From assembly GCA_963843575.1 (NCBI GenBank), contig CAWJKZ010000014.1:128001-192000 (forward strand): a DNA stretch of 64,000 nucleotides, written 5' to 3'. Both the position numbers and the translations under genes were made by a program. The stretch comes from an uncultured Acidobacteriota bacterium. GTDB taxonomy: Bacteria > Acidobacteriota > UBA6911. Shown here one piece after another: positions 10,131-48,313 of the stretch; position 1 is the stretch's first letter, and the number at the start of each line of letters is the position of its first letter. The notes beneath the pieces are model-generated. The model worked only from the letters and a program-made list of their open reading frames with translations, did no database searches and was not told the DNA's origin.

Positions 10131-10191
10131 AGGGCCGGGCGCGGCGCGACCGTCGGGGTCGCAACGCCACGGCGCATTTGCAGGGAAGATC

Positions 10192-10674: not shown

Positions 10675-10676
10675 CG

Positions 10677-11193: not shown

Positions 11194-11495
11194 TCGGACT
11201 CGGCAATTATCTTTTCATCAGCGCGGCCCTCTTCTCTCTGGGCCTCATGTGCGTGCTCACCCGCAAGAACGCCGTCCACGTGCTGATGGGGGTTGAGCTG
11301 ATCCTGAACTCGGCCAACATAAACCTGGTCGCGTTCTCGAAATTCTCGTCGGGGAACCTCGACGGGCAGGTGTTCGCGATCTTCGTGATCGTGGTCGCCG
11401 CGGCCGAGGCCGCCGTCGGGCTCGCCATCGTGCTGGCGATGTACCGGCTGGTGCGAACCGTCAACCTCGACCGCGCGGATACGCTCAAGGGGTAA
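11190..11495 (+). CDS. nuoK: NADH-quinone oxidoreductase subunit K
   Basis: RKNAV..LMGVELILNS, GQVFAIFVIVVAAAEAAVGLAI. Confidence 0.96.
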   Translation: MIGLGNYLFISAALFSLGLMCVLTRKNAVHVLMGVELILNSANINLVAFSKFSSGNLDGQVFAIFVIVVAAAEAAVGLAIVLAMYRLVRTVNLDRADTLKG

Positions 11496-11498
11496 TCC

Positions 11499-19655: not shown

Positions 19656-20018
19656 TCACGGGGTGCCGCTGATTTTTGGTGGTTCCGGGGAAACGGGGGG
19701 GTTTTCAGGGCTTGCGATGCGGATTTCAGTGGCGTTGCCGTCGATATCGATGCCCATCTTGGCGGTCTTCTTTGCGTCGAATTTGACATTGATGACGCTG
19801 TACTGGGAGAGAGAGGAAAATTCCGCTGGTTTGCCATCGACGGTGATCTTGGCGGTTGCCGCGTCGAGCACGAATTTCGTCTTGTCGGGTATCTGGGAAA
19901 TGAGGATGAGTTTGCTGGTGCCGGAGACGGACAGTAGCCGGTACTTTCCCGCTTCGACTGCGGTCGCGGGACCGCGGGCAAGGGCAATCATGACGAGTAC
20001 GAGGGCGACCTTTTTCAT
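19656..20018 (-). CDS. small exported hypothetical protein
   Basis: MKKVALVLVMIALA signal peptide followed by about 100 aa of beta-rich sequence; fills the intergenic gap. Confidence 0.65.
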   Translation of the reverse strand: MKKVALVLVMIALARGPATAVEAGKYRLLSVSGTSKLILISQIPDKTKFVLDAATAKITVDGKPAEFSSLSQYSVINVKFDAKKTAKMGIDIDGNATEIRIASPENPPVSPEPPKISGTP

Positions 20019-20148
20019 CCGCATACATTTTATGCACGCTGTGACGTCTTTAACAAGGCGAAAACTGGGTGCGGCGGAAGGCGCATCATATTCTCTGAAC
20101 GATCCGCGCGTAACACTCGTACTAGGAACCAAACAGGGGAGGGACCGC

Positions 20149-21072
20149 TTGATCATCGATCTCGAGAACATCACGGTCCGGTTCGGCCGCCAGCGCGTCC
20201 TCGAGGGTGTGGGGATGCAGTTTGGCGGGGGCTCGATGGGGCTTCTGGGGCCGAACGGCGCGGGCAAGAGCACGCTGCTGAAGACCCTGCTCGGGTTCAT
20301 CACGCCCGTGACCGGGCGGGGCAGAGTCCTCGGGCACGATCTACGCACCGAGCAGCTTGCGATACGCCAGAAGGTCGGATACATGCCGGAGAACGACTGT
20401 CACATCCCCGGGATGAACGCGGTGTCGTTCGTCTCGTATGCCGGGCAGCTGTCGGGGATGAGGTCGAAGGATGCCATGCAGAGAGCCCACGAGATCCTCT
20501 ACTACGTGGGGCTCGGGGAGGCACGCTACCGGAATGTGGAAACCTATTCGACGGGCATGAAGCAGAGGATCAAGCTCGCCCAGGCGCTGGTTCACGACCC
20601 GGAACTGCTGTTGCTGGACGAGCCGACCAACGGTCTGGATCCCAAGGGTCGGATCGAGATGCTCGAACTCGTGCGCGACATCTCCACGTCAAAGGGGATC
20701 CATGTAGTGCTTTCCTCGCACCTCCTCCCCGACGTCGAGTGGGTGTGCCGTGAGGCCATGGTCCTGCATCAGGGGAAACGACTGGCCTCGGGCGCAATCG
20801 AAGAGCTGAAGCTCGGTGCGGGCGCGGTCTTCGAATGCAGGGTGAAGGGAAACGTGCAGTCCTTTGTGGATGAGCTGACGATGCTCGGCTGCAAGTGCAC
20901 ACCGGGCGAAGATGGCATGCTTCACGTGGGGATGGTGGATGGACTCGGCAGCCAGAGTCTGCTGCGCGTCGCGCGCGACCACCACGTCCAGATCCGCCAC
21001 CTGGTTCCGTTAAGGCAGTCGCTCGAAGACGTTTTCCTGCAGGTGATCGGAGAATCCAATGCCCATTCATGA
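20149..21072 (+). CDS. ABC exporter ATP-binding protein
   Basis: TTG start after GGGAGG; GPNGAGKST, YSTGMKQR, LLLDEP, SSH. Confidence 0.93.
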   Translation: MIIDLENITVRFGRQRVLEGVGMQFGGGSMGLLGPNGAGKSTLLKTLLGFITPVTGRGRVLGHDLRTEQLAIRQKVGYMPENDCHIPGMNAVSFVSYAGQLSGMRSKDAMQRAHEILYYVGLGEARYRNVETYSTGMKQRIKLAQALVHDPELLLLDEPTNGLDPKGRIEMLELVRDISTSKGIHVVLSSHLLPDVEWVCREAMVLHQGKRLASGAIEELKLGAGAVFECRVKGNVQSFVDELTMLGCKCTPGEDGMLHVGMVDGLGSQSLLRVARDHHVQIRHLVPLRQSLEDVFLQVIGESNAHS

Positions 21073-21904
21073 TCTCGGCTACCGGCACTGGGCCGGGGAG
21101 TGGACCTCGCATCCATATCGCTGGTGGGTGATCACGCGGCAGGGGATCCAGTCACTGGTCAGGAAGAAACGGTTTTCGGTGCTGTTGTTCCTCTCCCTGA
21201 TCCCCTTTGTCGTGCGCTCCGTTCTGATCTATATCTCGACGATGGTTCCGCAGAATGCGCCGTTCCTGAAAATCGGACCACAGTTCTTCCAGGACTTCCT
21301 GTCGCAGCAGATGTGGTTTTTCACCTTTGTGATCGCCATTTACGCCGGTGCCGGGCTGATTGCGAACGATCTGAAGGTAAACGCCCTGCAGATCTATCTC
21401 TCCAAACCGATCACGCGCCGCGATTACATCTTGGGGAAACTCGGCGTTTTGGTTTTTTTCCTCTCGCTCCCGACGCTGGTCCCGGGGCTGCTGCTGTTTC
21501 TGCTGGCGGTGCTCTTCAAGGCGGATGCGGCGTTCGTTCGCGCGAACTACTGGGTGGCAGGTTCGATTGCGGCCTACGCGCTGCTGATCATCTTCACGTA
21601 CGCCCTGGTGGTGCTCGCACTGTCCTCCCTGAGCCGTTCCAGCAGGGTGGCGGGGGTCAATTTCGCGGCGGTCCTGTTCTTCAGCCAGATCGTCTACATC
21701 ATCCTGCGTCAGATGCTGCGCACGGAGCGCGTCGGTTGGGTTTCGCTCTCCAACAACGTGACCCGCGTCGGGGATCTGCTGTTCGGCGCGTCCTCGAGGT
21801 TGCCGTCGAGCCCGATGGTCTCGCTGCTTGTACTGCTGCTGGTGCTCATCGGCTGCGCGTGGGTGGTGTATCGGCGCGTCCAGGCCGTGGAGGTGGTGAA
21901 GTGA
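21059..21904 (+). CDS. ABC-2 type permease
   Basis: About 6 TM segments; YLSKPITRRDYILGK motif. Confidence 0.88.
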   Translation: MPIHDLGYRHWAGEWTSHPYRWWVITRQGIQSLVRKKRFSVLLFLSLIPFVVRSVLIYISTMVPQNAPFLKIGPQFFQDFLSQQMWFFTFVIAIYAGAGLIANDLKVNALQIYLSKPITRRDYILGKLGVLVFFLSLPTLVPGLLLFLLAVLFKADAAFVRANYWVAGSIAAYALLIIFTYALVVLALSSLSRSSRVAGVNFAAVLFFSQIVYIILRQMLRTERVGWVSLSNNVTRVGDLLFGASSRLPSSPMVSLLVLLLVLIGCAWVVYRRVQAVEVVK

Positions 21905-22833: not shown

Positions 22834-23646
22834 GTGTCGGACATTCCCCGGATCATCAAAGGCTGGCGCGACGCGCGCACCATCGCCTTCCTGACGCTGG
22901 ACACTCTGTTCTGGAGCAAGAAGACGGTCTTCGTCGCACTCGTTTCCATGCTTGTGCTGGGACTTTCCGTCCTGGGCCGGCTGGTGATGACCTATCACTG
23001 GATCCGGGTCCCGTTTACCTCGGCGCAGGTCTTCGGAACGCTGATGTCCACGGCGGTGATTCACTTCCTCGTCGTTTTCGTCACCCTGTTCTACGGCACG
23101 GCGCTGATCTCGGACGAGGTGGAAGGGAAAACCCTGACCTACCTGTTCGTCCGTCCCATACCGAAGCCGACGGTGATGTTTGGCAAGTTCCTCGCCCTGG
23201 CGTGGATCAGTTCGGTCCTGGTGATACCGACCGTTTTCCTGAGCTATCTGACTCTCTATCTGCGCGCCGACCTCGGTCCGTTCTGGGAAGATATGCCGAC
23301 GCTCGGCAGGGACGTCGGGGTGATCTTCCTGGCCCTGCTTGCTTATGGATCGCTCTTCTCGCTTTTGGGAGCGTGGCTGAAGCACTCGCTGCTGTTCGGG
23401 CTCTTCTATGCTTTCGGCTGGGAGGCCATCATTTCCTATCTGCCGGGATTCACGCGCAAGCTGACCATCACGCACTACATTCAGTCGATTTTCCCGCACA
23501 ACGACACGTCGACCGCCCTGGCCATGCTGATCGGGGACCGCACTCCCCCGCTGGAATCCCTGGTCACGCTCGTACTCCTGTCGGCCTTCATGCTGTTGAC
23601 GGCCAGCATCGTGGTCCGGGAGAAGGAGTACGTGCTGGAACAGTGA
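22834..23646 (+). CDS. ABC-2 type permease
   Basis: RBS AGGAGG; TM segments; DEVEGKTLTYLFVRPIPK...GKF. Confidence 0.88.
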   Translation: MSDIPRIIKGWRDARTIAFLTLDTLFWSKKTVFVALVSMLVLGLSVLGRLVMTYHWIRVPFTSAQVFGTLMSTAVIHFLVVFVTLFYGTALISDEVEGKTLTYLFVRPIPKPTVMFGKFLALAWISSVLVIPTVFLSYLTLYLRADLGPFWEDMPTLGRDVGVIFLALLAYGSLFSLLGAWLKHSLLFGLFYAFGWEAIISYLPGFTRKLTITHYIQSIFPHNDTSTALAMLIGDRTPPLESLVTLVLLSAFMLLTASIVVREKEYVLEQ

Positions 23647-23718: not shown

Positions 23719-24930
23719 TTGTGCTTGCGTTTTTATTACATCCTTCTGTCTGGCTTGATCTTTGGGCCACTGGCGGGAGCCGCCGCCCAGGAAACCGCAG
23801 GCGAGGTGTCGGTTCTGATGTTCCCGCCCGAAGGGCCGGGAGACCGGCCCCTGCTGGCGTGGGTTGGAGAGGGGATTTCGCACTCGATCTCGGAGCAGTT
23901 GCAGTCGCCCGGCCTGAAAGTCTTCAGCCGGGAGGAGCGCAACAACTTCCTGGAGGGGGCCGACCTGCCCCCGGACGTTCCGCTCAGCCGCGCCAGCATG
24001 ATCCAGGTTGCGCGGGCCGCAGGCGCCCGCAAGCTCGTGACGGGGTCCTGGTCTGGAACCGAGAAAGAGATGCGGATCGCCCTGCGCATCCTCGACGTGA
24101 AAGCCATCAAACTCGGCGGGGAACTTTCGGCCAACGGGCCCCTCGGCGCGCTGCCGGAGATGGAGAACGAGCTCGCCTGGCTCATCCTGGGCGAAACCGG
24201 GATCGGAAGGTTGGAGGCGCGCAATAAGTTCGGCGAGCGGCGGCGCACGGTGCCGAACGCGGCATACGCTTCGCTGATCCAGGGTCTGACCGTCACCGAG
24301 GACAACGAGCAGCTCACGCTGCTGCAGCGCGCACTCGAACTCTACCCGGACATCCCTGAAGCGTCCTACCTGGCCGGGAGGCATTACTACCGGCACGGCA
24401 ACTACGACGCGGCCCTGCGCTACCTGGAATCGGGCCAGAAATGGCGGCCTGGCTATCTCGATGCGGCCTTCATGCTGGGAACCTGCTACGTGAAGAACAA
24501 CTCGCTCGAAGCCGCGGTCCGCTCGTTCAACAACGTCCTGGCGTTCACCCGGTCCGCCGAAGCCCTGAACAATCTCGGTGTCGCCTACCTCCGCAAGGGG
24601 GATTATCCCCTCGCGGTCGAGCACCTGGTCGAGGCCCGCGACGTGGCCAGGCAGCAACCCACCATCGCCCTGAACCTGGCGATCGCGCGGCACCTCGCGG
24701 GCGACGACGCCATGGCGGAAACCCTGTTGCAGCAGACGGCGAAATCGGACACGGTCCGGGGGGTCGCCCAGTACGTGCTGAGCCTCGTGCTCGAGCGGCA
24801 ATCCAGGAAAGAGGCCGCGGAAGCGGCCCTGGCCGCGGCGGTCGGCGCCGGGATCGATCCCGACAAGATGAAGTCGGACGGGCCCCGGGGCTGGAGCCGC
24901 CTGATCACCGCTTGGGAAGCCAGGCCTTAG
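23719..24930 (+). CDS. exported TPR-repeat protein with TolB-N/CsgG-like N-terminal domain
   Basis: Signal-like N-terminus; TPR motifs such as AEALNNLGVAYLRKGDY and AAFMLGTCY. Start codon uncertain. Confidence 0.75.
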   Translation: MCLRFYYILLSGLIFGPLAGAAAQETAGEVSVLMFPPEGPGDRPLLAWVGEGISHSISEQLQSPGLKVFSREERNNFLEGADLPPDVPLSRASMIQVARAAGARKLVTGSWSGTEKEMRIALRILDVKAIKLGGELSANGPLGALPEMENELAWLILGETGIGRLEARNKFGERRRTVPNAAYASLIQGLTVTEDNEQLTLLQRALELYPDIPEASYLAGRHYYRHGNYDAALRYLESGQKWRPGYLDAAFMLGTCYVKNNSLEAAVRSFNNVLAFTRSAEALNNLGVAYLRKGDYPLAVEHLVEARDVARQQPTIALNLAIARHLAGDDAMAETLLQQTAKSDTVRGVAQYVLSLVLERQSRKEAAEAALAAAVGAGIDPDKMKSDGPRGWSRLITAWEARP

Positions 24931-25183: not shown

Positions 25184-25270
25184 GCCGAAGTGGCGGAATT
25201 GGCAGACGCGCTAGGTTCAGGGTCTAGTGGGCTTAAGCTCGTGGGGGTTCGAGTCCCCCCTTCGGCACCA
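25184..25270 (+). tRNA. tRNA-Leu (anticodon CAG)
   Basis: Acceptor stem GCCGAAG/CTTCGGC, D-arm GGAATTGGCAGAC, anticodon arm CTAGG-TTCAGGG-TCTAG, long variable arm, GTTCGAGTC T-loop, encoded CCA. Confidence 0.97.
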
Positions 25271-25400: not shown

Positions 25401-28377
25401 TCAGGGAGCGGGTTGGGCCGGTACCGCCGAAAGAACGGACAGGTCGTGTGTCCCGAAAAGTGCGAAGGCAGCCACCGGATTGTCGGAAGTCATCCGGACA
25501 TATCCCGAGTTACGGTTCTGGCCGGCGAGGGCAGGGAAGTGTTCGGTCAGAAGTTTTGACACCCTGTGGCGGGCCTGAATGGTTTCGGTGACGGTCCCCT
25601 CGAGGGTGCCGTCGGAGCTATAGACCTCCAGGGTCACTGCGGCTGGGTTGTCGGACGGGTTGAGGATGGCGAGCCCGGTGAAAAAGGTCTCGTTTGACGC
25701 GACCTGGCCGAAGACGGCTTCGTCCTGGAGAGTGGACGCGAGGGGGAGGGCCGCCGCGAAGACGCGCCTCTCGGGATCGCCGAACACGACGCTCCCGGTG
25801 AGGTTCACGTCGGCCGTTATCTTGACGTAGCCCTGGACGATCTCCCCGGCCGTCGACACGAAAAACGACTGATCCTTGAGGTAGATCTTTCCGTGGGCGG
25901 CGATTGGCCGCACCCGGGTCGGCCCGATCTGAGCCCCGTCGTCGCCTACCAGCCTGAATGTGACGGTACCAGGCGCGGAGTCGAGGTTTATCACCGACAG
26001 GGTCGACCGCCAGGGGCCTCCCACGGCATATTGCGGCGAATAAAGCACGGTTGCCCCGGCTGTGGTGTCCTGGCCGTTGAGGCCCTCGAGGTACTGCGCG
26101 GCTTTGCCGAGCATCTGGAACGGGTATTACCCCCTTGCCGGACAGGATGCGCACGTAGTCGCTCGCATCCACGGGAGTATCCGGAAACAGCTCCGTCAGG
26201 TATTCCGCTATGACGCCATTGCCATTGACGGTTCGGTCGGCGGAAGCGCGCGCCGTGCCGTCCTGCCGGACGAGATCGATCCGGACCGGGACCTGCTCTT
26301 CGTTGGGGTTGGCGATGTGAATCTGGGTGAATCCCTCGTCCTCGACCTCCGACAGGAGGGACGAGACGAACGGCATGAGAAATACCGGTGCGCCGTCGAG
26401 CACGCTCAGGCTGCTGTTGAACATGAGGGTGAATCCGGTGACCCCCGGGGCGCTGCTGTCGAGCTTGATCCATCCGATACGCCCGTTGCTGGTCATACCG
26501 CTCCCGAACAGCTCGACGTCGACGACGGGCAGCTGGGTGCCGGGCGGCAGGCTTATCTCCGCGGGATTGACGATGTCGTCGCCGCTGATTTCCGCGCCCT
26601 GTGTGTCGTAGGCCGTGAACGTGAGGATGGCGTCGATGCTGCCGAGGTTTACCACGGCGATACCCGTGTACTCACTGCCGTCGAGGCCGGTGGCCAGCCC
26701 GTCCTGGCTGACGAGCCGGGGATAGTACATGCTGACCGCCGCGCTGGAAGCGGTGGTGGTCTTGAAGGAGTACGTGTCGGAGACCGCGAGATTACCGGAC
26801 GCGTCGCGGGATTTGACGCGGAACTTGTATTCGGTGTTCGGCTTCAGGCCGGAGACGCTGGAGAAATGGGATACCACCAGCGATCTGTTCAGTTTCGATG
26901 CTTTCCCAAAGCTAGCGGTGGCGCCGTACTCGGCCTGCGAGTCCGATGCCTCGTTGGTTACCCAGTTGATGACGGCGTTTCGCGCGCCGGCGGTGGTGCC
27001 GATGCTGATGATCTCGGGCGGGGTGGTGTCGTTCGGGCCCGTGCTGAAGGTCAGATCGGCTGACGCCGCGCTGTTGCCGGCGGCGTCTTTCGACCTCGCC
27101 CTATAGTGGTAAGTCGTCGAACCGCGCAGCCCGGTCAATACCACCGAGTGCGACGTCACCTGTGCGGTGGCGACGGGCGTGCGGCCGTCGTTGACCGAAG
27201 TCGCGCCATACTCCACCTGCGAATCCGCTGCCTCGTTCGTGGTCCAGACGATGGTGGCGCCCGTGGAGGTGATGGAGGCCGCGGCCACTCCCGATATTAC
27301 CGGTGCAGTGGTGTCCGGTGCGGAGATAGTGGTAAACGTGTAATCTCCCGAGACCGACGGGTTGCCCGATGCGTCACGGCAGCGTACGCGGTAGTGATAC
27401 GTAGTACTGGCGGTGAGGCCTGTCAGGGACACGGCGTGCGACGTGACTTTCGTCGCGTCGAGGACAGTCGAATTCCCGTAGGAAGCCGTCGTGCCGTAGT
27501 CGACCTGGGAATCGGCCCCTTCGTCCGTTGTCCAGGTCACGGTCGCCCCGGTCGAGGTGTTGCTGGTGGCGAGGATGTTCGAGAGCACCGGGGGCGTGGA
27601 ATCCGAGGGAGGCGCCGTCGAGAAGGTCAGGTCGGTGGATACGGCCCGGTTGCCTGCCGCATCCCTCGACATCACGCGATAGTGATACAGGGTGCCCGGC
27701 GCGAGACCGGTCAGGGTTTGAGAGTGCGCCGTGACCTTCGTCTCATTGAGTGTGGTCGTCGTTCCGTATGTACTCGACAAGCCATACTGCAGCTGCGTGT
27801 CGGAGGCCTCGTTCGTCGTCCAGGAGATAGTTGCCGAGGTGCTGTCGATGGAACTGGCTGCGATCGCGGACAGTACCGGTGGGGTGGTGTCGCCTGTGGC
27901 CAGCACGGTGACGCTTCCGCTGACCGCGGCAGCCGTCAGCGGGTTGCCGTTCGGATCGGAAACAACCACGGAGGAAATGGTCAGCGGCAGCTGACCCGGG
28001 GCTGTTCCCGCCGCCACCGTGGTGTGCAACACCGCCACGCTGCCGGATCCCAGCGAGTTCGCGTTCAGGCCGAACACCAGAAAGCGAACGGCGCCGGCGA
28101 CTGCGGTGTTGCTTATGACATCTTTGCCTGCCGCTGCTGCCGCGGCCCCCGTCGAGACCGAGCCGACGGTGAGTGCGGCCGGAAGCACAATGTCGACCTG
28201 CATGGTGCCGACCCCGGAGGATCCTGCCACGAAGTTGACGGGCACGTCCACCGTGGTGGCGGGGAAACCCATTCCTGTCCCGACCGTGACGGTGCCTGCG
28301 GTTTGAGATAAACCGGCCACCGCTCCGGTCGACAGGACGACAGACAGGACGAACAGTAATCTCGCGGTTCGGGACAT
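25401..28377 (-). CDS. large exported protein: cohesin-like domain + 4 Fn3-like repeats + about 440 aa C-terminal beta region (frameshift near 26115)
   Basis: Signal peptide MSRTARLLFVL; cohesin-like TVDVPVNF...MQVDIVLP...VRFLVFGLN...SDPNGNP; four DTTxPxI...WTTNE...Y.YRV.SRD..GN repeats; C-terminus in ORF 25401-26114 is homologous to the paralog. Confidence 0.85.
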
Positions 28378-28525
28378 AGGGCGCTCCTGAGGCTTTCGAC
28401 GGAACTCATCGGGTGCAGGCGGCGGGAGCCGTATGCCGCAGGTCACAAAAGCGGCGAATTGCCTGTGAGTGCGGGAACTGGCGGGAGGGCGTTTTGGGGG
28501 GCAGTCCGCCCTCCCGGTGTGACGG

Positions 28526-31500
28526 CTATGGCACGATCTGCGGTGGGATGGCCGAGAGCACGGACAGGTCGTTGCTGCCGAAAAGGGCAAACGCCGCGAT
28601 GTCTTTGTCCGCGGTCACCTTGACATAGCCCGACGTGCGGGTCTGGCCGGCAAGCCCCGGGAAGAACTCGGTCAGCACCATCGAGGTGCGCTGCTTGCCG
28701 GGGATCGTTATTACCGTCGATGCCTCTATACGCCCGTCGGTTCCGTACAGGTCGAGGGTTGCGGTGGCATTGTTCGTGTTCGGATTGAGGATCGCGATCC
28801 CGGTGAAGTACGTCTGGCTGACGGCCACCTGGCTGAACAAGACCGAACGCTGCAGCTGGTCGACCAGCGGTAGCGCCGCCGAAAACACGCCGCATTCGGG
28901 GTCACCGAAAACGACGCTTCCGGTGAGCCGGATGCCGCTGCTGATGATCTCGACGTACCCTTGGGTGACGACGTTGCTCGGGTTGACGAACAGGCTCTGG
29001 AAAAACGCCGGGTCGTCGATGCGGATCTTGCCGTGCGGCTCGATGGGCAGCACCTTCGTCGCGCCGATCTGGGTGGAATCGTCGTGGATGAAGCGGAAGG
29101 TCACGGTCCCTGCGGTGCTGTCGAGGTTAACGACGGACAACGCCGACCGCCACGGTCCCCCCACCGCATACTGGGGCGAATAGAGGATTGCGGATCCCGC
29201 AGTCGAGTCCTGCCCGTTGAGACCCTGGACGTACCGCGACGCCTTCCCGAGCAGCTCGAATGCCAGCATGCCCGTTGGAGCGCTGACGCGGACGTAGTCG
29301 GAGGACGCCGGAGTCGAGTCCGGGAACAGGTCGGTCCAAAGGTCGGCCACCACGGCCCCGCTGCCGGGGACCGTGCGGGTCATGGACGCGGCCGTCGTCC
29401 CGTCGGCGCGAACAAGCTGGAACTTGAGTTCGGCCGGGTCGGCCGAGGGGTTCGCAATGTCCACGCGCGTGAATCCCCGGTCCTCGATTTCGGGAAGAAC
29501 AAACGAGGTCATCGGATGCGACGAGATATTCGCACCGTCCAGGACGCTCATGCGCGAGTCGAATATGAGGAAGAATCCCGCCACCTTGGCGACGGTGCTC
29601 TCGACTTTGATCCAGCCAATGGTGCCGTGGGACTGAATCGCGTCGCCGAAAAGCTGGGTGTCCACCACGGGCAACTGTTCGGTCGGGTTCAGAACCCGGG
29701 TCACGGGGTTGCTGATCGACGGCCCGGAAATCTCCACGCCCGACGGGCCGTAGGCCGTAAACGTGAGGGTGGCAGGGGCCGTGTCGAGGTTGGCGATCGC
29801 GACGCCTACATACTGCTCCTCCACCTCTCCGGATTGACTGACCCCGCCACTTCCGGGCATGAGAGGATAGAAGAGCGTAGCGGCGGCGTCTCCCGTCGGT
29901 TTCTCGGTCGTCGTAAAGGTGAGATCAGCGGACATGGCTATGTTGCCTTCGGCGTCCTTGGACTTGACCCGGAAATGATAGGTGGTCTTGGGGATCAGCC
30001 CTCGCAACACTTCCGTGTGCGCTTCCAGCAGGGTTGGGCGCAGGGCCGTGACGAGGCCGTAAGATTCCACGGTGCCGTACTCGACCTGGCCGTCTGCCGC
30101 TTCGTTGGTGGACCACGTGACGGTGGCGCGGGAATAGCCGACACCGGAAACGGTCACTGCGGATATGACCGGAGGGGTGGTGTCCGGTTCGGAGGAAGTC
30201 GTGAAGGTGTAATCGCCGGAGATGGCCAGGTTGCCGGCGGCGTCGCGCGAACGGACCCTGTAATGGTATTTCCTCGCGGCCGTCAGGGCGCTCAGCAGCT
30301 GTGCGTGGGAGGTCGCGGCGGCGGTGTTGAGCGGCGTGGCGTTTCCGTAGGAGTCGGTACCGCCGAAGTCGACCTGGGAGTCCGAGCTCTCGTCGGTCGA
30401 CCAGAGAATCAGGGCCGTCGTCTTTGTGACGGCCGTGGCCGACACGTTGTTGATGACCGGTGCCGTGGTGTCGTCTGAGCCCGCGGTCGTGAAGGTCTGA
30501 TCCCCGGAAACGGCTTGGTTGCCGGAAGTGTCGCGGGATTTCACGCGGTAGTGATACTGGGTGGTGGATTTGAGGCCCGACAATGCTACCGAGTGCGATG
30601 TGCCTTGCAGGCTCGACCCGGCGGTCGAGCCGTAGTCCATGGCAGTTCCGTACTCGACGGTCGAGTCCGAGGGTTCGCTGGTCGTCCAGGAGATCAGTGC
30701 CCCGCTCTGGGTGATATTGGAACTGGTCACGCCCGAGATGGTGGGCGCGGCAGTGTCGGAGGTCGTAAAGGTGTAGTCGCCCGAGACTGCGGTGTTGCCG
30801 GCGTCGTCGCGCGACTTGACCCGATAATGGTAACGCGTGGCCGGCGCCAGGCCTGCAAGGGACTGCGAGTGGCTGGTCACCATAGTCGTGTTCAATCCGC
30901 TGGTGCTCCCGTAACCCGAAGTCAGTCCGTATTCGACCTGCGAGCTGGAGGCCTCGTTGGTCGTCCATGTGATGAGGGCTCCGGTACCGGTGACCGACGA
31001 CGAGGCGATCGCCGTTATCACCGGCGGCGCGGTGTCTTCCGGGGCTGCGGTGGTGAACGTGAAGTCGGCGGACGTCCCCAGGTTCCCTGCGCCGTCGCGG
31101 GACAGGACGCGGTAATGATAGAGGGCGGAAGGAGAAAGCCCGGTAAGGCTCTGGGAATGGCTCGTGGCGAGGGCGGCGACCAGCGGAGTCGAGTTGCCGT
31201 AGGCCGCTGTAGTGCCGAATTCGACCTGGGTGTTGGATGGCTCGTTTGTCGTCCAGGAGACCGTGGCGCTGCTCTGGGTGATGTTGGAACTGGTCACGCC
31301 CGAAATGGTGGGCGCGGCAGTGTCGGAGGTCGTAAAGGTGTAGTCGCCCGAGACTGCGGTGTTGCCGGCGTCGTCGCGCGATTTGACCCGATAATGGTAA
31401 CGCGTGGCCGGCGCCAGGCCTGCAAGGGAGAGCGAGTGGCTGGTCACCATGGTCGTGTTCAACCCGCTGGTGCTCCCGTAACCCGAAGTCAGTCCGTACT

Positions 31501-32380
31501 CGACCTGCGAGCTGGAGGCCTCGTTGGTCGTCCATGTGATGAGGGCTCCGGAACCGGTGACCGACGACGAGGCGATCGCCGTTATCACCGGCGGCGCGGT
31601 GTCTTCCGGGGCTGCGGTGGTGAACGTGAAGTCGGCGGACGTCCCCAGGTTCCCTGCGCCGTCGCGGGACAGGACGCGGTAATGATAGAGGGTGGAAGAA
31701 GCAAGCCCGGCAAGGCTCTGGGAATGGCTCGTGACGAGACCGCCGACCAACGGAGTCGAGTTGCCGTAGGCCGCTGTCGTGCCGAATTCGACCTGGGTGT
31801 TGGATGGCTCGTTTGTCGTCCAGAAGACCGTGGCCCCTGTGCTGGTTATCGCCGAAGCCGAGACCGCGCCGATGACGGGCGGCGTGGTATCGGCCGAGCC
31901 GATGATCGTGACGGTGCCGCCGCTCCCGGATACGCCGGGCACCCTGATGCCGGCCGGATCTGAGGCGTCGACGCTGGCGATGGACACGGACACCGGGGCC
32001 GGTGCCGCCCCTGGAGAGATGCCCAGTGTGACTACCGCGATGATTCCGGACCCGATGGCGCTCTGGTTGAAACCGAACACCACGACGCGCATGCCGCCGG
32101 CGACCGCCGCACCCGACACGCTCTTGCCGGCCGCATTTGCCGCCGCCCCCGGGTTGACCCTCGTGTAGGTGAGTGAGGACGGGAACGTGAGGTCGAACTG
32201 GAGTGAACTGACGGGGGTGGCCCCGGGCGCGAAACTGACGGCCAAGTCCACTGAAGCACCGGGAAGTCCGGAGCCGTTGCCCACCGAAATCGTTTGCGCC
32301 TCAACGGGTGGCGGAATCAGGAAGGCTGCGAGAGTGCACAGGAGAAGGACAACTAGAGTCTGACGCCGTAGGGGGATCAT
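28526..32380 (-). CDS. large exported protein: cohesin-like domain + 7 Fn3-like repeats + about 450 aa C-terminal beta region
   Basis: Signal peptide MIPLRRQTLVVLLL..VEA; cohesin-like PGASVDLAVSF...SSLQFDLTFP...MRVVVFGFN...ASDPAG; seven Fn3/purple-acid-phosphatase-N-like repeats; paralog of 25401-28377. Confidence 0.88.
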   Translation of the reverse strand: MIPLRRQTLVVLLLCTLAAFLIPPPVEAQTISVGNGSGLPGASVDLAVSFAPGATPVSSLQFDLTFPSSLTYTRVNPGAAANAAGKSVSGAAVAGGMRVVVFGFNQSAIGSGIIAVVTLGISPGAAPAPVSVSIASVDASDPAGIRVPGVSGSGGTVTIIGSADTTPPVIGAVSASAITSTGATVFWTTNEPSNTQVEFGTTAAYGNSTPLVGGLVTSHSQSLAGLASSTLYHYRVLSRDGAGNLGTSADFTFTTAAPEDTAPPVITAIASSSVTGSGALITWTTNEASSSQVEYGLTSGYGSTSGLNTTMVTSHSLSLAGLAPATRYHYRVKSRDDAGNTAVSGDYTFTTSDTAAPTISGVTSSNITQSSATVSWTTNEPSNTQVEFGTTAAYGNSTPLVAALATSHSQSLTGLSPSALYHYRVLSRDGAGNLGTSADFTFTTAAPEDTAPPVITAIASSSVTGTGALITWTTNEASSSQVEYGLTSGYGSTSGLNTTMVTSHSQSLAGLAPATRYHYRVKSRDDAGNTAVSGDYTFTTSDTAAPTISGVTSSNITQSGALISWTTSEPSDSTVEYGTAMDYGSTAGSSLQGTSHSVALSGLKSTTQYHYRVKSRDTSGNQAVSGDQTFTTAGSDDTTAPVINNVSATAVTKTTALILWSTDESSDSQVDFGGTDSYGNATPLNTAAATSHAQLLSALTAARKYHYRVRSRDAAGNLAISGDYTFTTSSEPDTTPPVISAVTVSGVGYSRATVTWSTNEAADGQVEYGTVESYGLVTALRPTLLEAHTEVLRGLIPKTTYHFRVKSKDAEGNIAMSADLTFTTTEKPTGDAAATLFYPLMPGSGGVSQSGEVEEQYVGVAIANLDTAPATLTFTAYGPSGVEISGPSISNPVTRVLNPTEQLPVVDTQLFGDAIQSHGTIGWIKVESTVAKVAGFFLIFDSRMSVLDGANISSHPMTSFVLPEIEDRGFTRVDIANPSADPAELKFQLVRADGTTAASMTRTVPGSGAVVADLWTDLFPDSTPASSDYVRVSAPTGMLAFELLGKASRYVQGLNGQDSTAGSAILYSPQYAVGGPWRSALSVVNLDSTAGTVTFRFIHDDSTQIGATKVLPIEPHGKIRIDDPAFFQSLFVNPSNVVTQGYVEIISSGIRLTGSVVFGDPECGVFSAALPLVDQLQRSVLFSQVAVSQTYFTGIAILNPNTNNATATLDLYGTDGRIEASTVITIPGKQRTSMVLTEFFPGLAGQTRTSGYVKVTADKDIAAFALFGSNDLSVLSAIPPQIVP
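30704..31827 (-). repeat. near-identical intragenic tandem duplication, 567-bp period (2 Fn3 units)
   Basis: AACTGGTCACGCCCGA occurs at 30721 and 31288; AGGCCGCTGT occurs at 31201 and 31768. Both offsets are 567 bp. Confidence 0.9.
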
Positions 32381-32400
32381 GACAGCGGCTCCACAGGGTA

Positions 32401-32895
32401 TTATTCCGGACAGGTTCTTGTGCCGAGCACGACGTTGCCTAGGACTTGGAGATCCAGGACGTCGGTGCGGGTATCTTTGTTGATATCGCACGACCCCGGA
32501 CAGGTTCGGGTCCCCAGGATGACGTTGATCAGGATCTGGAGATCGAGCACGTTCGAGATGGTGTCGCTGTTGATGTCGCATCCCGTCGAACCGGTGACGG
32601 TGGCGGTGACTTCATTGGAATAGCCGCTTTCCTGCCCCCCTCCGTTCCAAGCCGTAACGCTGAAATAGTAGGTGCCGGGGGCGAGGCCGGTAACCGTGTA
32701 AGTCGTCGTTGTTCCGATCGTTATCGGTGTTCCGTAGGTGCGTGAAGCGGTTCCGAAGTACACCTTGTAGCCGGCGAGATCGGGCTCTGCGTTGGCATCC
32801 CAGGCGAGGGTGACATCGGCCGCGAGCAGGGGCGGCGCGGTGACGGAGACTATCAAGAGTGACAGCGCCAGTGCGGTCGTCTTTTTAAGTTGCAT
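32401..32895 (-). CDS. small exported Fn3 + dockerin-like protein
   Basis: Signal peptide; Fn3 (VTLAWDAN..DLAGYKVYFG...YYFSVTAWN..ESGYSNEV); duplicated Ca-loop motif CDINSDTISNVLDLQILIN.ILG / CDINKDTRTDVLDLQVLGN.VLG. Confidence 0.88.
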   Translation of the reverse strand: MQLKKTTALALSLLIVSVTAPPLLAADVTLAWDANAEPDLAGYKVYFGTASRTYGTPITIGTTTTYTVTGLAPGTYYFSVTAWNGGGQESGYSNEVTATVTGSTGCDINSDTISNVLDLQILINVILGTRTCPGSCDINKDTRTDVLDLQVLGNVVLGTRTCPE

Positions 32896-33015
32896 GAGCT
32901 TGCCATACCTCGTTCTTGGGGACTGAATGGGTAGGTTTGGGCGTGCAGGTTCGTCTTCTCATAGGCAAAGTCGGATCGATTCTGAGGGCGTATCGGCAGA
33001 GGGGCAGGCGGGAAT

Positions 33016-33031
33016 TGTGGTGTCAATCACA
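33016..33031. promoter_or_regulatory. palindromic TGTGG-N6-TCACA site (CRP/FNR-like or enhancer-like TGT-N10-ACA)
   Basis: TGTGGTGTCAATCACA about 120 bp upstream of the dockerin gene start; 9/10 match to the CRP consensus half-sites. Confidence 0.4.
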
Positions 33032-33141: not shown

Positions 33142-34494
33142 CTAGAGCTGGTAGCGGGACATCAGTTCGTAGAGGGTGGGACGGCTGATTCCCAGCGATC
33201 GGGCAGCCCTGGAGATGTTGCCGTTGTTGTCGCGCAGCGCCCTGGAGATCACGCCGCGCTCCACTTCCTGGCGGGCCTCCCTCAGCGACGCCGTCGACCC
33301 CGCAGGGGCGGGGGGGGCCTGCTCGAGCTCCAGGTCGGCCGGGACGATCAGCTGACCCTCTGCGAGCACGAGGGCGCGTTTGACTCGGTTCTGCAGCTCG
33401 CGTACGTTCCCCGGCCACGCGTGGCCGAGGAGCGCAGCGTGCGCGGCCCTCGAGAGCCTTTTGGGCGGCCTTTTCATCTCTCTGGAGAAGGCGGCGATCA
33501 TGTGATCCGCGAGGTGGATGATATCGTCGCCGCGCTCCCTAAGCGGTGGAAGGACGATTTTGACCACCGCGATCCGGAAATACAGATCTTCCCGGAAGGA
33601 ACCCTCTCGGACGGCGGCTTCGAGATCGCGGTGGGTCGCGGCGATGATGCGGCTGTCGACGCAGATAGGGGTGCGGCCGCCGAGACGTTCGATCACTTTT
33701 TCCTGGAGGAATCGGAGGATCTTGACCTGCATCTCGGGGGCGAGGTCGCCGATTTCGTCCAGGAAGAGCGTGCCGTGGTGTGCGTATTCCACCTTGCCGC
33801 GCCGCTGGCTGGCGGCACCGGTGAAGGAGCCCTTCTCGAAACCGAAGAGCTCGCTCTCCAGCAGGTTTTCCGGGATCGCGGAGCAGTTGATGGCCACGAA
33901 GGGGCCGTCCTTGCGCGGACCGAGCCTGTGGATCGCCTGCGCGATCAGCTCTTTACCGGTCCCGCTCTCTCCCCGGATCAGAACGGGCACGTCGGCTGCG
34001 GCCACCTTGCGGACCGACGCGAAAACGGACTTCATCACTTCGCTCGAGCCAACCATCTCGTCCAACGGCAGCGACGCGGAGAGCGCCCTATCGTCGAGGC
34101 CCTGCTGCTCGAGTTCGACCCGCTTGAGCACGCGGCGCAGCACGACCCTCAGTTCGTCCACGTCCACGGGTTTGGGGAAGATGTCGTGCGCTCCTCGAGC
34201 GACGGCCTGAAGGGCGTTCTGGCGCTCGGAGTTGCCCGACACGACGACGACCTTGACCAGCGGATTGTGAGCGATCAGCTCCTCCAGGGCGAGGAGACCC
34301 TCGGTCGCTTCGCGGGGACGGGGCGGAAGCCCGAGGTCCAGCAGTGCTATCGAGATCTCCTCTCTCTTGAACAGGTCGAGCGCCGAGGTCCGGTCCATCG
34401 CCGGGCGGACCTGGTATTCGTCGGAGAAGGCCCACTGGATCTGCTTGAGGATCTGCTCGTCGTCGTCGACGACAAGCAGTCGGGGTAACGACAT
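33142..34494 (-). CDS. prsR: sigma54-dependent response regulator, PEP-CTERM-system PrsR-like
   Basis: REC domain (LLDLGLPP...EG), AAA+ GESGTGKE, GSFTGA, LFLDEIG, WPGNVRELQN, Fis HTH; directly downstream of a PrsK-like kinase. Confidence 0.8.
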   Translation of the reverse strand: MSLPRLLVVDDDEQILKQIQWAFSDEYQVRPAMDRTSALDLFKREEISIALLDLGLPPRPREATEGLLALEELIAHNPLVKVVVVSGNSERQNALQAVARGAHDIFPKPVDVDELRVVLRRVLKRVELEQQGLDDRALSASLPLDEMVGSSEVMKSVFASVRKVAAADVPVLIRGESGTGKELIAQAIHRLGPRKDGPFVAINCSAIPENLLESELFGFEKGSFTGAASQRRGKVEYAHHGTLFLDEIGDLAPEMQVKILRFLQEKVIERLGGRTPICVDSRIIAATHRDLEAAVREGSFREDLYFRIAVVKIVLPPLRERGDDIIHLADHMIAAFSREMKRPPKRLSRAAHAALLGHAWPGNVRELQNRVKRALVLAEGQLIVPADLELEQAPPAPAGSTASLREARQEVERGVISRALRDNNGNISRAARSLGISRPTLYELMSRYQL

Positions 34495-34632: not shown

Positions 34633-36735
34633 TCAGGGTGCGGACCGGCCGACCGAGGCAGTGGAAACGGATTCGGAGGCGCAGGGCAGGACGACGCGCA
34701 CCGACGTTCCGACTCCGCTCTTGCTTTCGACGCTGATGGTGCCGCCGTGCGCCTCGACGATCTTCCTGCACTGGAACAGCCCGATGCCGAGGCCGTCGCT
34801 CTTGGTTGTGTGGAAGGGGTGGAACAACATGTTTTCCAGGAACTCGGCACTGATGCCGCTCCCGTTGTCCTCGACGACCATTTCGGCCTTCCCGTCGGCC
34901 GCCGCCGTTACCACGCGTATCTCGCCGGTCGACGGGGTGGCCTCGCGCGCGTTGAGCAGGAGGTTCTGCAGCACCCTTGCCATCTCCTCTGCATCGACGA
35001 ACACCGGGAGCGGGGCGGCGAGTTCGAGCCGGACTGCCTGGTCGCAGCCGTTCAACGTGGTAGCAACCCCGGTGCGCACGATCTCGTTTAGGTCCTCTGC
35101 CTTGCGGTGGGCCGCCAGGTTGCCCGAGAAGGTTTTCAGGCTGTTGCAGAGACGCTTCATCTTCTCGGCCGTCTCGTGGACGGAGGCAAAGGCGTCCTTT
35201 TGAAAATCGGGATTATCTTGGTGCCGCACCGCGTTCTTGGCGATCATGGACAGGGTGGAAGCGAAGTTTTTCAGATCGTGCAGGAGAAATGTCGAGAAGC
35301 TGCGGAACGCTTCGGTTTCCTTGGCCTCCATGAGTGTGGCCAGGAGTTCGGACTTGTGCAGCTCGCCCGCGGCGTGGCCTCCGAGCACCCGCAGGAAATC
35401 CCGGGTCTCCTGTTGATAGTGCTGCCCGCTGCGGTCGGGCCCCACCGTGAGGACGCCCACGACGCGATCGCTGGAGACGAGCGGCACGAGCAGCGCGGCG
35501 TGTGTCTGCCGTATGAAGGTGCGCAGTCCATCCGCTGCGGGTTCGAGCTCCTTGGCGGCCGTCACCTCGGTGCACTCGAGCAGTGACTCCACGATGCCGT
35601 GCACAACCCTTTCCGGGGTCTCAGGTTCGGTGCCGAGAAAGGCGGCGAGAGTGAGACGGTTGGGATTGCGTTCGCGGATCCACACGCCGACGTCGATGGT
35701 TCCCAGGGCGCTTTGCGTCACCTCTGCGAGCGCGCGCGCCGTGACTTCGGGCGGATCCACGGAGCGCACCTTCTCGGCCGCTTCCATCCAGTATTGCCTG
35801 TAATCGTAGTGGCCCGCAAAAATGTTGCGCCGCAGCCAGACTCGAAGGCGATGGCGGAACGCAGGCCACAGCAGTATGCCGCCCATGGCCAGCGCCGACA
35901 GAAGGAACACGACGGCTTCGACCTGGACAGGGCTCCCGCCGAGCTGGCTCGCCCAGCGGGCCAGGACGCCCGACACGATGAGATAGACCGCGACGCCGAG
36001 AAGCGTGAACGAGCTGTAGACGAGGCTGTGCGACACCCTGACCGCCTCCCGGCTGGAGGAGGTTCGCCGCCACGAGATCAGGATCAGGGCCGCCGCCAGA
36101 AGCGAAATCAACGGGTAAACGTGCAAGGCGCCGACCGGCAGGAGCGCGAGCGCGAACGAGTAGAGGAGCACCTTCGAGGCGATATAAAGCATGCTGGCGA
36201 ACGAAACCGCCAGGCCGAGCAGGAGGAACTTGATCTCGCGGAGCGCGCGCTCCCCGGATGTCCTGAGCGTCTGCTCGATCCTGGCAAGCCCCGCCACCGA
36301 GAGGGTCAGCAGGTAGAGGGACGCGCAATACCCGCCCGGACCCAGCGCAACGAACTGGACGCTGAGTTCGGCGGCACGCTCGAGGGCCGGCGGGCGCATC
36401 AGGATCCAGGCCGCCAGCACTGGGGCGGGAGCGACAAAAACGGCTGCGCAGGCCGCTCTTTTCCAAGCGTGCCGCGGCAGGCGCGGCCGATCCAGCCGCC
36501 AGAGAAAGGCCACCGCCGCCGGGATCGCCGGCAGAAGGGCGACAAAGGCCAGCCGCGCGGCCCACTCGGCCGGCAGCCGGTCGCTCGCGATCGGGTGGAG
36601 CACAAACCCCAGTGCCGGCAAGCCGAGGAACAGGGAGAGCAGCCCGGAGGCCCGCCCGAAACGCGGCGCTGCGGCGACCAGGATGCCGACCACCACGCCG
36701 AACAGTCCGGGGAGCAGATAGAGGATTTCGTTCAT
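34633..36735 (-). CDS. prsK: membrane sensor histidine kinase, PEP-CTERM-system PrsK-like
   Basis: Multi-TM N-terminus, YDYRQYW, GAF domain, H-box STFLLHDLKN, N-box, TTKSDGLGIGLFQC; about 700 aa. Confidence 0.82.
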   Translation of the reverse strand: MNEILYLLPGLFGVVVGILVAAAPRFGRASGLLSLFLGLPALGFVLHPIASDRLPAEWAARLAFVALLPAIPAAVAFLWRLDRPRLPRHAWKRAACAAVFVAPAPVLAAWILMRPPALERAAELSVQFVALGPGGYCASLYLLTLSVAGLARIEQTLRTSGERALREIKFLLLGLAVSFASMLYIASKVLLYSFALALLPVGALHVYPLISLLAAALILISWRRTSSSREAVRVSHSLVYSSFTLLGVAVYLIVSGVLARWASQLGGSPVQVEAVVFLLSALAMGGILLWPAFRHRLRVWLRRNIFAGHYDYRQYWMEAAEKVRSVDPPEVTARALAEVTQSALGTIDVGVWIRERNPNRLTLAAFLGTEPETPERVVHGIVESLLECTEVTAAKELEPAADGLRTFIRQTHAALLVPLVSSDRVVGVLTVGPDRSGQHYQQETRDFLRVLGGHAAGELHKSELLATLMEAKETEAFRSFSTFLLHDLKNFASTLSMIAKNAVRHQDNPDFQKDAFASVHETAEKMKRLCNSLKTFSGNLAAHRKAEDLNEIVRTGVATTLNGCDQAVRLELAAPLPVFVDAEEMARVLQNLLLNAREATPSTGEIRVVTAAADGKAEMVVEDNGSGISAEFLENMLFHPFHTTKSDGLGIGLFQCRKIVEAHGGTISVESKSGVGTSVRVVLPCASESVSTASVGRSAP

Positions 36736-43338: not shown

Positions 43339-43500
43339 CGTCTCGCCCCCTCGATGTGTGTGGTATCGGCTGCAGTTTAGCAGAACCGTATGCAAAATGC
43401 TGTTCACCTGCGCGCCTTCGCGGCCATTCCGCGTTGCTGGTTACCGTCGGTAATCCCTGGGACACACAAGGAGCGATGCCGGTCCGGGTGGTGCGAGCAG

Positions 43501-47226: not shown

Positions 47227-47384
47227 GCGACCGCCCCGTTGCAGGCTTTCCGCGCCGCCACAGCCGGGACTTCGGAGCGAAACACCCCGAGGCACTCGTC
47301 GGACGCTGCTGCGAGTTTCGGTCTGATCTGCTGTTCGTGTCCCGAGCCGGGGTTTGGACCCGCCGACGCACTCAAGTGAGATCC

Positions 47385-48161: not shown

Positions 48162-48313
48162 GCACCCGTCGGGAAGGGCCGCCAGGGGCTAGTTTTTTTG
48201 TTTCGCGGATTGCCGTTCATGGTATATTCCGCGCAAAGCCTCACGTATTGCGCCTGTTACAGGCGTGTTCCGATGGGGCTGAGGATCAACAGGTTCCAAG
48301 GAGAAGGATAAGA

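Follow-up and report, generated by a model that had tools for sequence, protein, structure and literature searches.

A predicted non-cellulosomal cohesin–dockerin operon with fibronectin-type stalks in an uncultured Acidobacteriota bacterium

The 64,000-nucleotide stretch of an uncultured Acidobacteriota genome analysed here (the window; positions 128,001 to 192,000 of contig CAWJKZ010000014.1, assembly GCA_963843575.1) carries on its minus strand, within 25401-32895, three adjacent genes for exported proteins, one of which encodes a true dockerin and two of which encode true cohesins. We favor, with reasonable if far from complete confidence, the interpretation that these constitute a non-cellulosomal cohesin–dockerin operon in which monovalent stalks resembling anchoring scaffoldins capture dockerin proteins. 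The two stalk proteins share a C-terminal module (CTM) at their base, and because this module is common to many other exported proteins of the genome the system is probably one of surface display, unrelated to cellulose breakdown. The initial annotation, a reading of the nucleotide sequence made without database searches, had proposed a docking system of this general kind; the identities of the dockerin and cohesins, their close spacing and their conservation as neighbors in related genomes bear out that proposal, whereas the dockerin-tagged cargo that it envisaged was not found in the bacterium's own genome, whose assembly is 88% complete.

Cohesin and dockerin modules occur outside cellulosomes in all domains of life, and the pertinent passages of the literature describe their function there as not known (PMC5244752) or merely suggest a role in adhesion (PMC10066038). 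A full-text literature search, judged on titles and the openings of abstracts, returned no paper describing a cohesin–dockerin system in Acidobacteria.

Organization of the locus and the dockerin protein

The three genes are co-oriented and lie on the minus strand where the initial annotation had placed them, with 20 nucleotides (nt) separating the stop codon of gene 1 from the start of gene 2, and 148 nt between the stop of gene 2 and the start of gene 3. Gene 1 (32401-32895) encodes a secreted Fn3-dockerin protein of 164 amino acids, comprising a signal peptide read from the sequence (32821-32895, residues about 1-25), a fibronectin type III (Fn3) domain (32602-32820, residues 26-98) that matches Pfam fn3 with 34.1 bits (cut-off 25), and a dockerin (32404-32580, residues 106-164) followed by the stop codon at 32401-32403. 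Residues 107-155 match Pfam Dockerin_1 (PF00404) with 27.0 bits against a cut-off of 22.9, and with 28.1 bits in a scan of the whole genome. The earlier description of this protein as a signal peptide, an Fn3 domain and a duplicated calcium-loop motif with four cysteines (32404-32580) is thus supported by Pfam matches above the cut-off for both domains.

Type I dockerins consist of two repeats of about 22 residues, each with a calcium loop bearing acidic or amide residues at positions 1, 3, 5, 9 and 12 and then a helix. The gene 1 dockerin has this two-repeat organization of calcium loop and helix: its repeats, DINSDTISNVLD and DINKDTRTDVLD, contain canonical calcium loops and closely similar, nearly identical helices, and they agree with each other at 15 of 22 positions, a near-identity that we take to be the pattern of the dual binding mode in type I dockerins. 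An alignment of 15 sequences through both repeats shows the loop aspartates and asparagines to be invariant or nearly so, and two of the four cysteines in the protein, C106 and C162, which lie at opposite ends of the dockerin module, are invariant in 15/15; these two residues may therefore form a disulfide clasp. The profile of this dockerin family matches the structurally determined dockerins 1daq, 2mte, 4fl4 and 2vn5_B, with E values of 4e-5 to 4e-4.

Gene 2 (28526-32380) encodes a 1284-residue protein that starts with MIPLRR at 32380 and contains a signal peptide (about 32297-32380), an N-terminal cohesin (about 31886-32296), seven Fn3 modules (about 29900-31891) and the CTM (28529-29830). 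Gene 3 (25401-28377) has the same plan with a cohesin (27880-28299), four Fn3 modules (about 26743-27891) and a CTM (about 25404-26676) whose profile match comes in two pieces, the reading frame being split by an extra base at 26121 that is discussed below. Stretches matching Pfam Pur_ac_phosph_N or fn3 number seven in gene 2 and four in gene 3, and the module boundaries agree with this, as do the repeat numbers that were first reported. A Pfam scan finds no catalytic family in any of the three proteins, nor had the initial annotation recognized one, and neither a lipobox, nor a membrane helix, nor a PEP-CTERM tail is visible in them. Contigs from two public RNA libraries (at least 99% alike) cover parts of all three genes, and one of these, 419 nt long, bridges the junction of genes 1 and 2, which provides a weak hint of co-transcription only.

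Identity of the N-terminal cohesin domains

The N-terminal domain of the gene 3 protein matches Pfam Cohesin (PF00963) with 36.9 bits, against a cut-off of 24.1, across positions 2-139 of the 139-position profile, and a scan of the whole genome with this profile lands on the same domain. The corresponding domain of gene 2 is 44% identical to it (E 1e-28). The Pfam comparison suggested at the outset therefore succeeds for Dockerin_1 in gene 1 and for Cohesin in gene 3, and not for Cohesin in gene 2 taken alone. A single-sequence phmmer search of the gene 2 domain against PDB sequences also yields nothing significant, with an oxidoreductase at the top (E 0.033) and cohesins at E 0.5-0.6, so that its recognition required a family profile. 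When built from 18 cohesins of the family, such a profile matches 11 PDB sequences at E≤1, the best being 1g1k (9.6e-9, full length), and all 11 are either named scaffoldin or cohesin modules or, in two cases, chains titled solely 'cell-wall anchoring protein'.

AlphaFold models the gene 2 domain with high confidence (predicted local distance difference test score, pLDDT, 94.9) and in the nine-stranded beta-sandwich (jelly-roll) fold of cohesins. All of the PDB matches listed by Foldseek are cohesins, with template modeling (TM) scores of 0.66-0.81 and a best E value of 3e-11, and they include CaCohA2, cohesins of Clostridium cellulolyticum and Clostridium thermocellum (among the latter 3ul4 and 4dh2), and the non-cellulosomal Archaeoglobus module 2xdh. 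A generic immunoglobulin-like (Ig) or carbohydrate-binding module (CBM) fold was considered for the N-terminal domains and is excluded by the confident model and by the fact that every listed fold match is a cohesin. The single N-terminal cohesin-like domain proposed for each of genes 2 and 3 is thus confirmed, by Pfam for gene 3 and by the family profile and fold model for gene 2.

Conservation and pairing in related genomes

The closest relatives in public records are uncultured Acidobacteriota/Terriglobia genomes. Full-length matches to the Fn3-dockerin profile are restricted to Acidobacteriota/Terriglobia records (L025-L037), besides two weaker and incomplete ones that extend to residue 152 in a Patescibacteria-group record and to residue 136 in a deltaproteobacterial record; in other phyla the match covers only the Fn3 part of gene 1. 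Across 61 related genomes gene 1 is matched in 44 (mostly via its Fn3 part) and the cohesin profile in 25, a tally that includes the unpublished genome G046, on which no claim rests. Within the family, represented by 37 genomes including the source genome, cohesins are present in 16, and all 16 of these have a match that includes the dockerin; 18 genomes have neither module.

The two modules are also neighbors. Of the 15 other genomes with both modules, 12 have the Fn3-dockerin gene no more than 200 nt from a cohesin gene, and these 12 belong to six genera of one Acidobacteriota family; the remaining cases are a separation of 2-5 kb in G014 and G017 and a location on separate small contigs in G029. 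The usual layout is a dockerin gene, one or two cohesin-Fn3-CTM genes, a convergent gene for a tetratricopeptide repeat (TPR) protein and an ABC-2 permease gene; the order of the dockerin and cohesin genes is reversed in G003. Conservation of synteny had been set out as a check of the original proposal, and the proposal withstands it. In the source genome itself both cohesins (2 matches among 26 candidates) adjoin the sole dockerin (1 match among 14 candidates).

Two types of fusion protein connect the partners further. An Fn3 domain of the gene 1 type is found at the N-terminus of CTM proteins, both in the source genome (contig C19) and in two other loci (L015 and L020), and a single chain with a reprolysin domain, Fn3 and CTM (P0062) exists beside proteins in which reprolysin and Fn3 are joined to a dockerin. 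Both patterns tie the dockerin side of the system to the CTM side and so support the pairing. When the gene 2 cohesin, the dockerin of gene 1 (residues 100-164) and two calcium ions were modeled as a complex, the scores were 0.25 and 0.26 relative to a mark of 0.32, in a run without controls, and the outcome speaks neither for nor against binding.

Dockerin-bearing proteins in the source genome and its relatives

The source genome (6.68 Mb in 27 contigs, 88% complete) contains a single PF00404 match among 14 candidates, and this is gene 1. The other dockerin-tagged cargo that had been anticipated is thus not found there, although it is present in relatives, and no reprolysin/M12B peptidase was found in the genome at this level of completeness. 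In relatives, 18 stretches with dockerin-only matches were retrieved, all 18 of which contain a dockerin-like segment, and 16 proteins from 15 of them were scanned with Pfam; the set excludes one additional frame and the three stretches in which an N-terminal dockerin belongs to a frame that runs past the stretch. Dockerin_1 scores above the cut-off in all 16. Seven of these proteins are peptidases: six, from five genera, are of the reprolysin type (M12B), four of which also have Fn3 and/or TIG domains, and one is a 1480-residue C25 peptidase. None of the 16 matches a glycoside-hydrolase catalytic family. Three combine a cohesin and a dockerin in one chain and come from two other families, and the remainder have TIG (in the same-genus genome G001), Ig, beta-helix, CHB_HEX_C_1, propeller or PcRGLX-like domains. 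Because dockerins tag M12B and C25 peptidases as well as other proteins in these relatives, the family-wide system there would display exoenzymes.

Two further arrangements are of note. Proteins L115 (G042:C204) and L114 (G039:C35), from two other families of the class, each join a propeller-like N-terminus to both a cohesin and a dockerin, and could in principle link head to tail. In L102 (G025:C9), L108 (G019:C18) and L109 (G017:C125) the dockerin is N-terminal and follows the signal peptide directly; these proteins are about 385-1250 residues long.

The shared C-terminal module

The initial annotation had noted a C-terminal region shared by genes 2 and 3. This region is real and extends over about 430 residues (the last 434 of gene 2), with a match of the gene 2 copy to Pfam DUF5719 of 49.1 bits (cut-off 26.2); what had gone unseen is that it is a large and widespread module, and it is the most interesting by-product of this analysis. 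A search of 1.84 billion representative proteins yields 2565 matches at E≤0.001, of which 1422 remain at E≤1e-10 and 412 at E≤1e-30. For 139 of the 150 matches listed, the module stops no more than 11 residues short of the C-terminus, in proteins ranging from 347 to 2395 residues. Forty of these 150 were scanned with Pfam, and their passengers are diverse: Fn3 rods (18/40), BACON (8/40), cohesin (4/40), TIG (4/40) and LRR domains (2/40), one subtilase (S8), one reprolysin (M12B), one C-type lectin, beta-propellers and others, with no known N-terminal domain in four.

The source genome has 37 matches to the CTM profile among 88 candidates and at least 19 full-length CTM genes including genes 2 and 3. 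Nineteen other CTM-bearing frames were scanned, and their passengers include peptidases (two subtilases and one that is M10-like), an MtrC/MtrF-like cytochrome, a domain resembling glucose/sorbosone dehydrogenase, propellers of the Kelch and lactonase types, DUF11/BACON domains and a lamin-tail domain; nine of the 19 have no recognizable passenger. The cytochrome, at G000:C11:94600-98150 (L141), is an exported 1087-residue protein with an MtrC/MtrF-like and a cytochrome c7-like domain and nine CxxCH motifs, possibly an acidobacterial multihaem cytochrome that is held at the surface.

The model of the CTM (pLDDT 92.6, predicted TM score 0.90) is all-beta with four sandwich domains, and its halves are related to each other (residues 5-196 and 228-416). 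In a fold scan covering 48,161 PDB representatives, residues 325-434 superpose on Thermotoga TM1070 (1nc7) with Z 14.9 and a root mean square deviation of 2.0 over 105 residues, and on ASRT (2ii7), the transducer for sensory rhodopsin in Anabaena, with Z 11.2. The eight-stranded beta-sandwich of the ASRT type is therefore seen in the last domain only, to which domain 2 is kin through the internal duplication; CBMs and galectins, at Z 5-6.7, are among the fold neighbors of the latter. Foldseek with the whole module returns only tandem-sandwich arrays (complement C3/C5, TEP1 and Bap) with TM scores of about 0.13. De Souza, Iyer and Aravind (2009, PMC2739507) defined the ASRAH superfamily, to which ASRT and TM1070 belong, with a prediction of sugar binding, and they describe an extracellular form in a cell-surface lipoprotein of actinobacteria. 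A full-text literature search for 'DUF5719' returned no paper. The CTM is most likely a general retention module that acts at the cell surface or its polysaccharide layer via glycan, to judge from its sequence and fold relationships and its range of passengers.

Variation in stalk length

The Fn3 rod of gene 2 contains a recent tandem duplication of a two-Fn3 unit (30629-31495, period 567 nt). A direct repeat search finds 300-nt copies that are 89% identical, and at the module level identity is 98% between modules 2 and 4 and 80% between modules 1 and 3; Tandem Repeats Finder is silent here, the period being above its limit. In related loci the number of Fn3 modules per stalk, estimated from match spacing at 285 nt per module, varies from about 1 to about 13, and this variation together with the near-identical modules of gene 2 indicates that stalk length changes quickly. 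In one contig of the public DNA run X3, position 30092 is followed directly by 30729, with 636 nt of the gene 2 rod missing, and this may be either a repeat-number variant or a mis-join; the shorter side of the joint is only 21 nt, which is too weak to call.

The gene 3 frameshift

A one-base frameshift in gene 3 was overlooked in the initial annotation: the window contains two overlapping frames, 25618-28377 and 25401-26114. Alignment to gene 2 places one surplus base in ...GTAATACCCGTTCC..., at 26121 and beside a CCC run on the coding strand. Removal of this base yields a protein of 991 residues with no stops, reading ...GKGVIPFQMLGK... and colinear with gene 2. A 151-nt contig of run X3 (26054-26205, depth 2, with one other mismatch) omits base 26121, and in a comparison of four public runs with the 7.5-kb locus this omission is the sole insertion or deletion reported; positions that the runs leave uncovered carry no weight either way. 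An in-frame form of gene 3 therefore exists, the evidence for it being one low-depth contig, and the surplus base is either an assembly error or a strain variant. A programmed frameshift was considered and rejected, given the lack of a slippery motif at the site and the existence of the in-frame contig.

The loci of two relatives with few-contig assemblies, G010 and G003, are also frameshifted. In G003 (L023, G003:C21, about 6140-6160) a base is missing about six codons from the position equivalent to 26121, in the same hinge, which joins the two halves of the CTM; this is a different event from the surplus base. The nearby frameshifts in two independent assemblies may reflect coincidence, error-prone sequence or something else.

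A model for the docking system and its alternatives

According to the interpretation that we favor, all three proteins would be exported by Sec, judging from the signal peptides in their sequences. The gene 2 and gene 3 proteins each consist of one type-I-like cohesin at the mature N-terminus, an Fn3 rod and a rigid four-sandwich CTM of the DUF5719/ASRAH kind, and the CTM would hold them at the surface or in the polysaccharide layer in the same manner as other CTM proteins. The rod would set the cohesin four or seven modules away, and the gene 1 dockerin would fold around two calcium ions and then dock on it. The outcome in this bacterium would be a stalk capped by the Fn3 domain of gene 1, and in the relatives the same socket would carry peptidases. 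The presumed surface location of the stalks follows from the role proposed for the CTM, and placement of the cohesin as the distal tip likewise depends on the CTM being the anchor.

Several considerations weigh against this interpretation. That the gene 1 dockerin binds the cohesins of genes 2 and 3, and that the CTM is an anchor and a glycan binder, are conclusions that we infer. The gene 2 domain (31880-32299) has by itself no Pfam Cohesin match at E≤1. Matches of the CTM to Pfam ASRT (PF07100) reach only 13.5-17.1 bits, below the cut-off of 25, and apart from the two superpositions of the last domain all of its fold matches have Z≤6.7, such that three of the four domains have middling matches. 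The co-occurrence counts come from kin and so overstate the independence of the observations, and three genomes of the family that are 86-93% complete (G011, G022 and G027) have a dockerin with no cohesin found. The RNA-library contigs prove neither transcription nor a single transcript. The only partner in the source genome is a capping Fn3 protein and not an enzyme; with one dockerin and no reprolysin there, the enzyme-display role is drawn from the relatives. Finally, the window shows gene 3 in a frameshifted form.

Of the competing explanations, the one that we take most seriously, while regarding it as rather unlikely, is that the CTM targets a substrate or matrix, as the CBM of a primary scaffoldin does. 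The proteins would then be released and bind external or biofilm polysaccharide, and the cohesin–dockerin link would cross-link or decorate the matrix or bring peptidases to the polymer, instead of displaying them on the cell. The sugar binding predicted for the ASRAH superfamily is general in the account given there (PMC2739507), and the CBM and galectin neighbors of domain 2, the lack of a visible lipobox, membrane helix or PEP-CTERM tail in the three proteins, and the presence of PrsK/PrsR and sugar-nucleotide genes alongside in the genome all agree with such targeting. Against such targeting, the breadth of the passenger range fits a localization module better than a substrate-specific CBM, and the CTM occurs on the MtrC/MtrF-like multihaem protein described above. 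Cytochromes of the MtrC type must stay on the cell.

Two other explanations appear improbable. The cohesins and the dockerin could be unpaired, their adjacency reflecting shared regulation or export while each module binds something else or nothing specific; the relevant statement that roles of non-cellulosomal cohesins and dockerins are unknown (PMC5244752) leaves room for this, as do the three relatives with dockerins in which no cohesin was found. It sits poorly with the presence of a dockerin in every cohesin-bearing genome of the family, the immediate adjacency of the genes across six genera, the fusion proteins that link partner domains of both sides, and the canonical form of both calcium loops in the dockerin. 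We give similarly little credence to the idea that the system is decaying, with a genuine frameshift in gene 3 and a vestigial dockerin protein as the relic of the enzyme display seen in relatives. The frameshift in the window, the single dockerin and lack of an M12B peptidase in the genome, and the G003 frameshift about six codons away in the same CTM hinge would all accord with decay. They are countered by the near-identical independent DNA contig that lacks the surplus base, by high third-position GC content in both halves of gene 3 and its full-length similarity to gene 2, by the RNA-library contigs that cover it, and by the intact state of both genes in the same-genus genome G001. Moreover, in the few-contig assemblies G010 and G003 genes that are well conserved in other respects contain several frameshifts, a sign of indel errors of assembly.

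Our preferred interpretation of a capturing stalk can be extended to a broader scheme, which we offer as a tentative possibility, open to doubt as a whole. The CTM would be the address tag of a new surface-display pathway of Acidobacteriota, a counterpart of the S-layer homology (SLH) domain or of the C-terminal domain of the type IX secretion system (T9SS), fixing about 20 exoproteins per cell (peptidases, a multihaem cytochrome and binding domains) to envelope glycan. Cohesin-tipped Fn3 stalks would mount dockerin-tagged M12B and C25 peptidases at variable distances, forming a 'proteolosome' in a diderm, and its assembly might involve the TPR protein and the ABC-2 transporter encoded by the conserved neighboring genes.

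Comparison with known systems

A cellulosome combines a scaffoldin of several cohesins with numerous dockerin-bearing carbohydrate-active enzymes and a cellulose-binding module. We considered a cellulosome and rejected it, as each chain has a single cohesin, the genome contains two cohesins and one dockerin, and carbohydrate-active enzymes are lacking; no CBM or catalytic family is found by Pfam in the three proteins. A closer parallel is with the anchoring scaffoldins SdbA, OlpA and OlpC of Clostridium (Acetivibrio) thermocellum, in which one cohesin is joined to an SLH cell-surface module and whose cohesins 3ul4 and 4dh2 appear in the fold matches above. Like these, the gene 2 and gene 3 products are exported, bear one cohesin each and a spacer, and carry at the C-terminus a module also present on many other surface proteins of the cell, and the partner carries a two-repeat calcium-binding dockerin. 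They differ in that the base is a set of four beta-sandwiches (DUF5719/ASRAH) and not SLH, the spacer is a long Fn3 rod of variable length, and the host is a diderm acidobacterium; moreover, the sole partner here is a small Fn3 protein, and the dockerin proteins of relatives are mainly peptidases, rather than scaffoldins or glycoside hydrolases.

The Archaeoglobus fulgidus module 2xdh provides a second comparison, since it too has a cohesin/dockerin context that is not cellulolytic; it ranks ninth among the fold matches of the gene 2 domain (TM 0.78) and is also a profile match. Here the adjacent genes form a conserved operon, stalk and base have a defined architecture, and dockerin-tagged peptidases occur across the family; we know of no such context for the archaeal cohesin module. 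Non-cellulosomal cohesin and dockerin modules have reportedly been surveyed (Peer et al. in 2009). The glycosidase and toxin complexes of Clostridium perfringens (2jh2, 2vo8 and the cohesin-Fn3 double module 2w1n), also among the fold matches of the gene 2 domain, similarly join exported proteins outside a cellulosome and have a cohesin beside Fn3. In C. perfringens, a monoderm pathogen, the enzymes themselves bear the cohesins or dockerins, whereas the cohesin carriers described here have no catalytic domain. As regards the base, the parallels are Pfam DUF5719, which the CTM matches above the cut-off, and the ASRAH superfamily, on whose members TM1070 and ASRT its last domain superposes; the ASRAH lipoprotein of actinobacteria is likewise extracellular and found with cell-surface proteins. 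Unlike the actinobacterial protein, the CTM is a four-domain C-terminal unit on diverse passengers of Acidobacteriota, and the CTM proteins are not lipoproteins and show no link to WhiB or a glycosyltransferase.

With one dockerin and two cohesins in one operon, the locus is a minimal and conserved, and hence testable, case of a non-cellulosomal system; its architecture is clear, and in relatives peptidases are carried on the same type of dockerin. It also exposes a large and unnamed family of C-terminal modules (2565 representative clusters), present on about 20 exported proteins per genome in an abundant and mostly uncultured phylum. An anchoring role of the CTM, if true, would account for the retention of exoenzymes and a cytochrome at the surface of these bacteria, and if the docking interpretation is true, the locus would provide a new orthogonal cohesin–dockerin pair and a display scaffold for protein engineering.

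Genomic context

Upstream of gene 1 and on the same strand are genes for a PrsR-type sigma-54 response regulator (33142-34494; TIGR02915, 570 bits, cut-off 502.6) and a PrsK-type histidine kinase (34633-36735; TIGR02916, 353 bits, cut-off 300). As a conserved partner of the operon this pair was rejected, there being no matches to it in 12 related loci that were retrieved; among five relatives checked PrsR scores above the cut-off in two, once 7 kb upstream and once 72 kb away. A search for the sigma-54 promoter TGGCAC-N5-TTGC with up to two mismatches gives 38 matches compared with 59 expected by chance, the only such site in the spacer between prsR and gene 1 (33011-33025) lacks the GG, and a search by eye also finds none; a scan for sigma-70 promoters and terminators is at chance level. 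No exosortase scores above the cut-off in the source genome, which is 88% complete (the best has 22.1 bits against 25.7), and a PEP-CTERM family scan of this genome has no match, with controls that were equally silent. The products of genes 1-3 lack the combination of C-terminal PEP motif, membrane helix and basic tail that marks PEP-CTERM/exosortase cargo, their tails being ...RTCPE, ...SAIPPQIVP and ...SAVPAQPAP with no hydrophobic helix. We therefore do not claim control by PrsK/PrsR, given that no sigma-54 promoter was found, that no exosortase is above the cut-off and that the adjacency is not conserved, and the pair may be orphaned or re-assigned in this genome.

On the other side of the operon the convergent neighbors on the plus strand encode an ATP-binding cassette (ABC) ATPase (19663-21072), ABC-2 permeases (21059-21904 and 22834-23646) and a TPR protein (23719-24930). 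The 270-residue permease is present in six of the 12 related loci and a homologue of the TPR protein in seven. A tRNA-Leu gene (anticodon CAG; 25184-25270, plus strand) separates the TPR gene from the end of gene 3.

Elsewhere in the window, a plus-strand gene at 47714-50266 encodes a radical-SAM protein whose resemblance to the tetraether lipid synthase Tes scores 326 bits, short of the 450-bit cut-off, and genes for PknB-type kinases are situated near it at 41266-43407 and 46366-47295. Two tandem plus-strand genes at 13054-15770 match the model of archaeal-type phosphoglucosamine mutase with 447 and 503 bits (cut-off 439), and a nuo operon lies upstream of this pair at 6467-12986.

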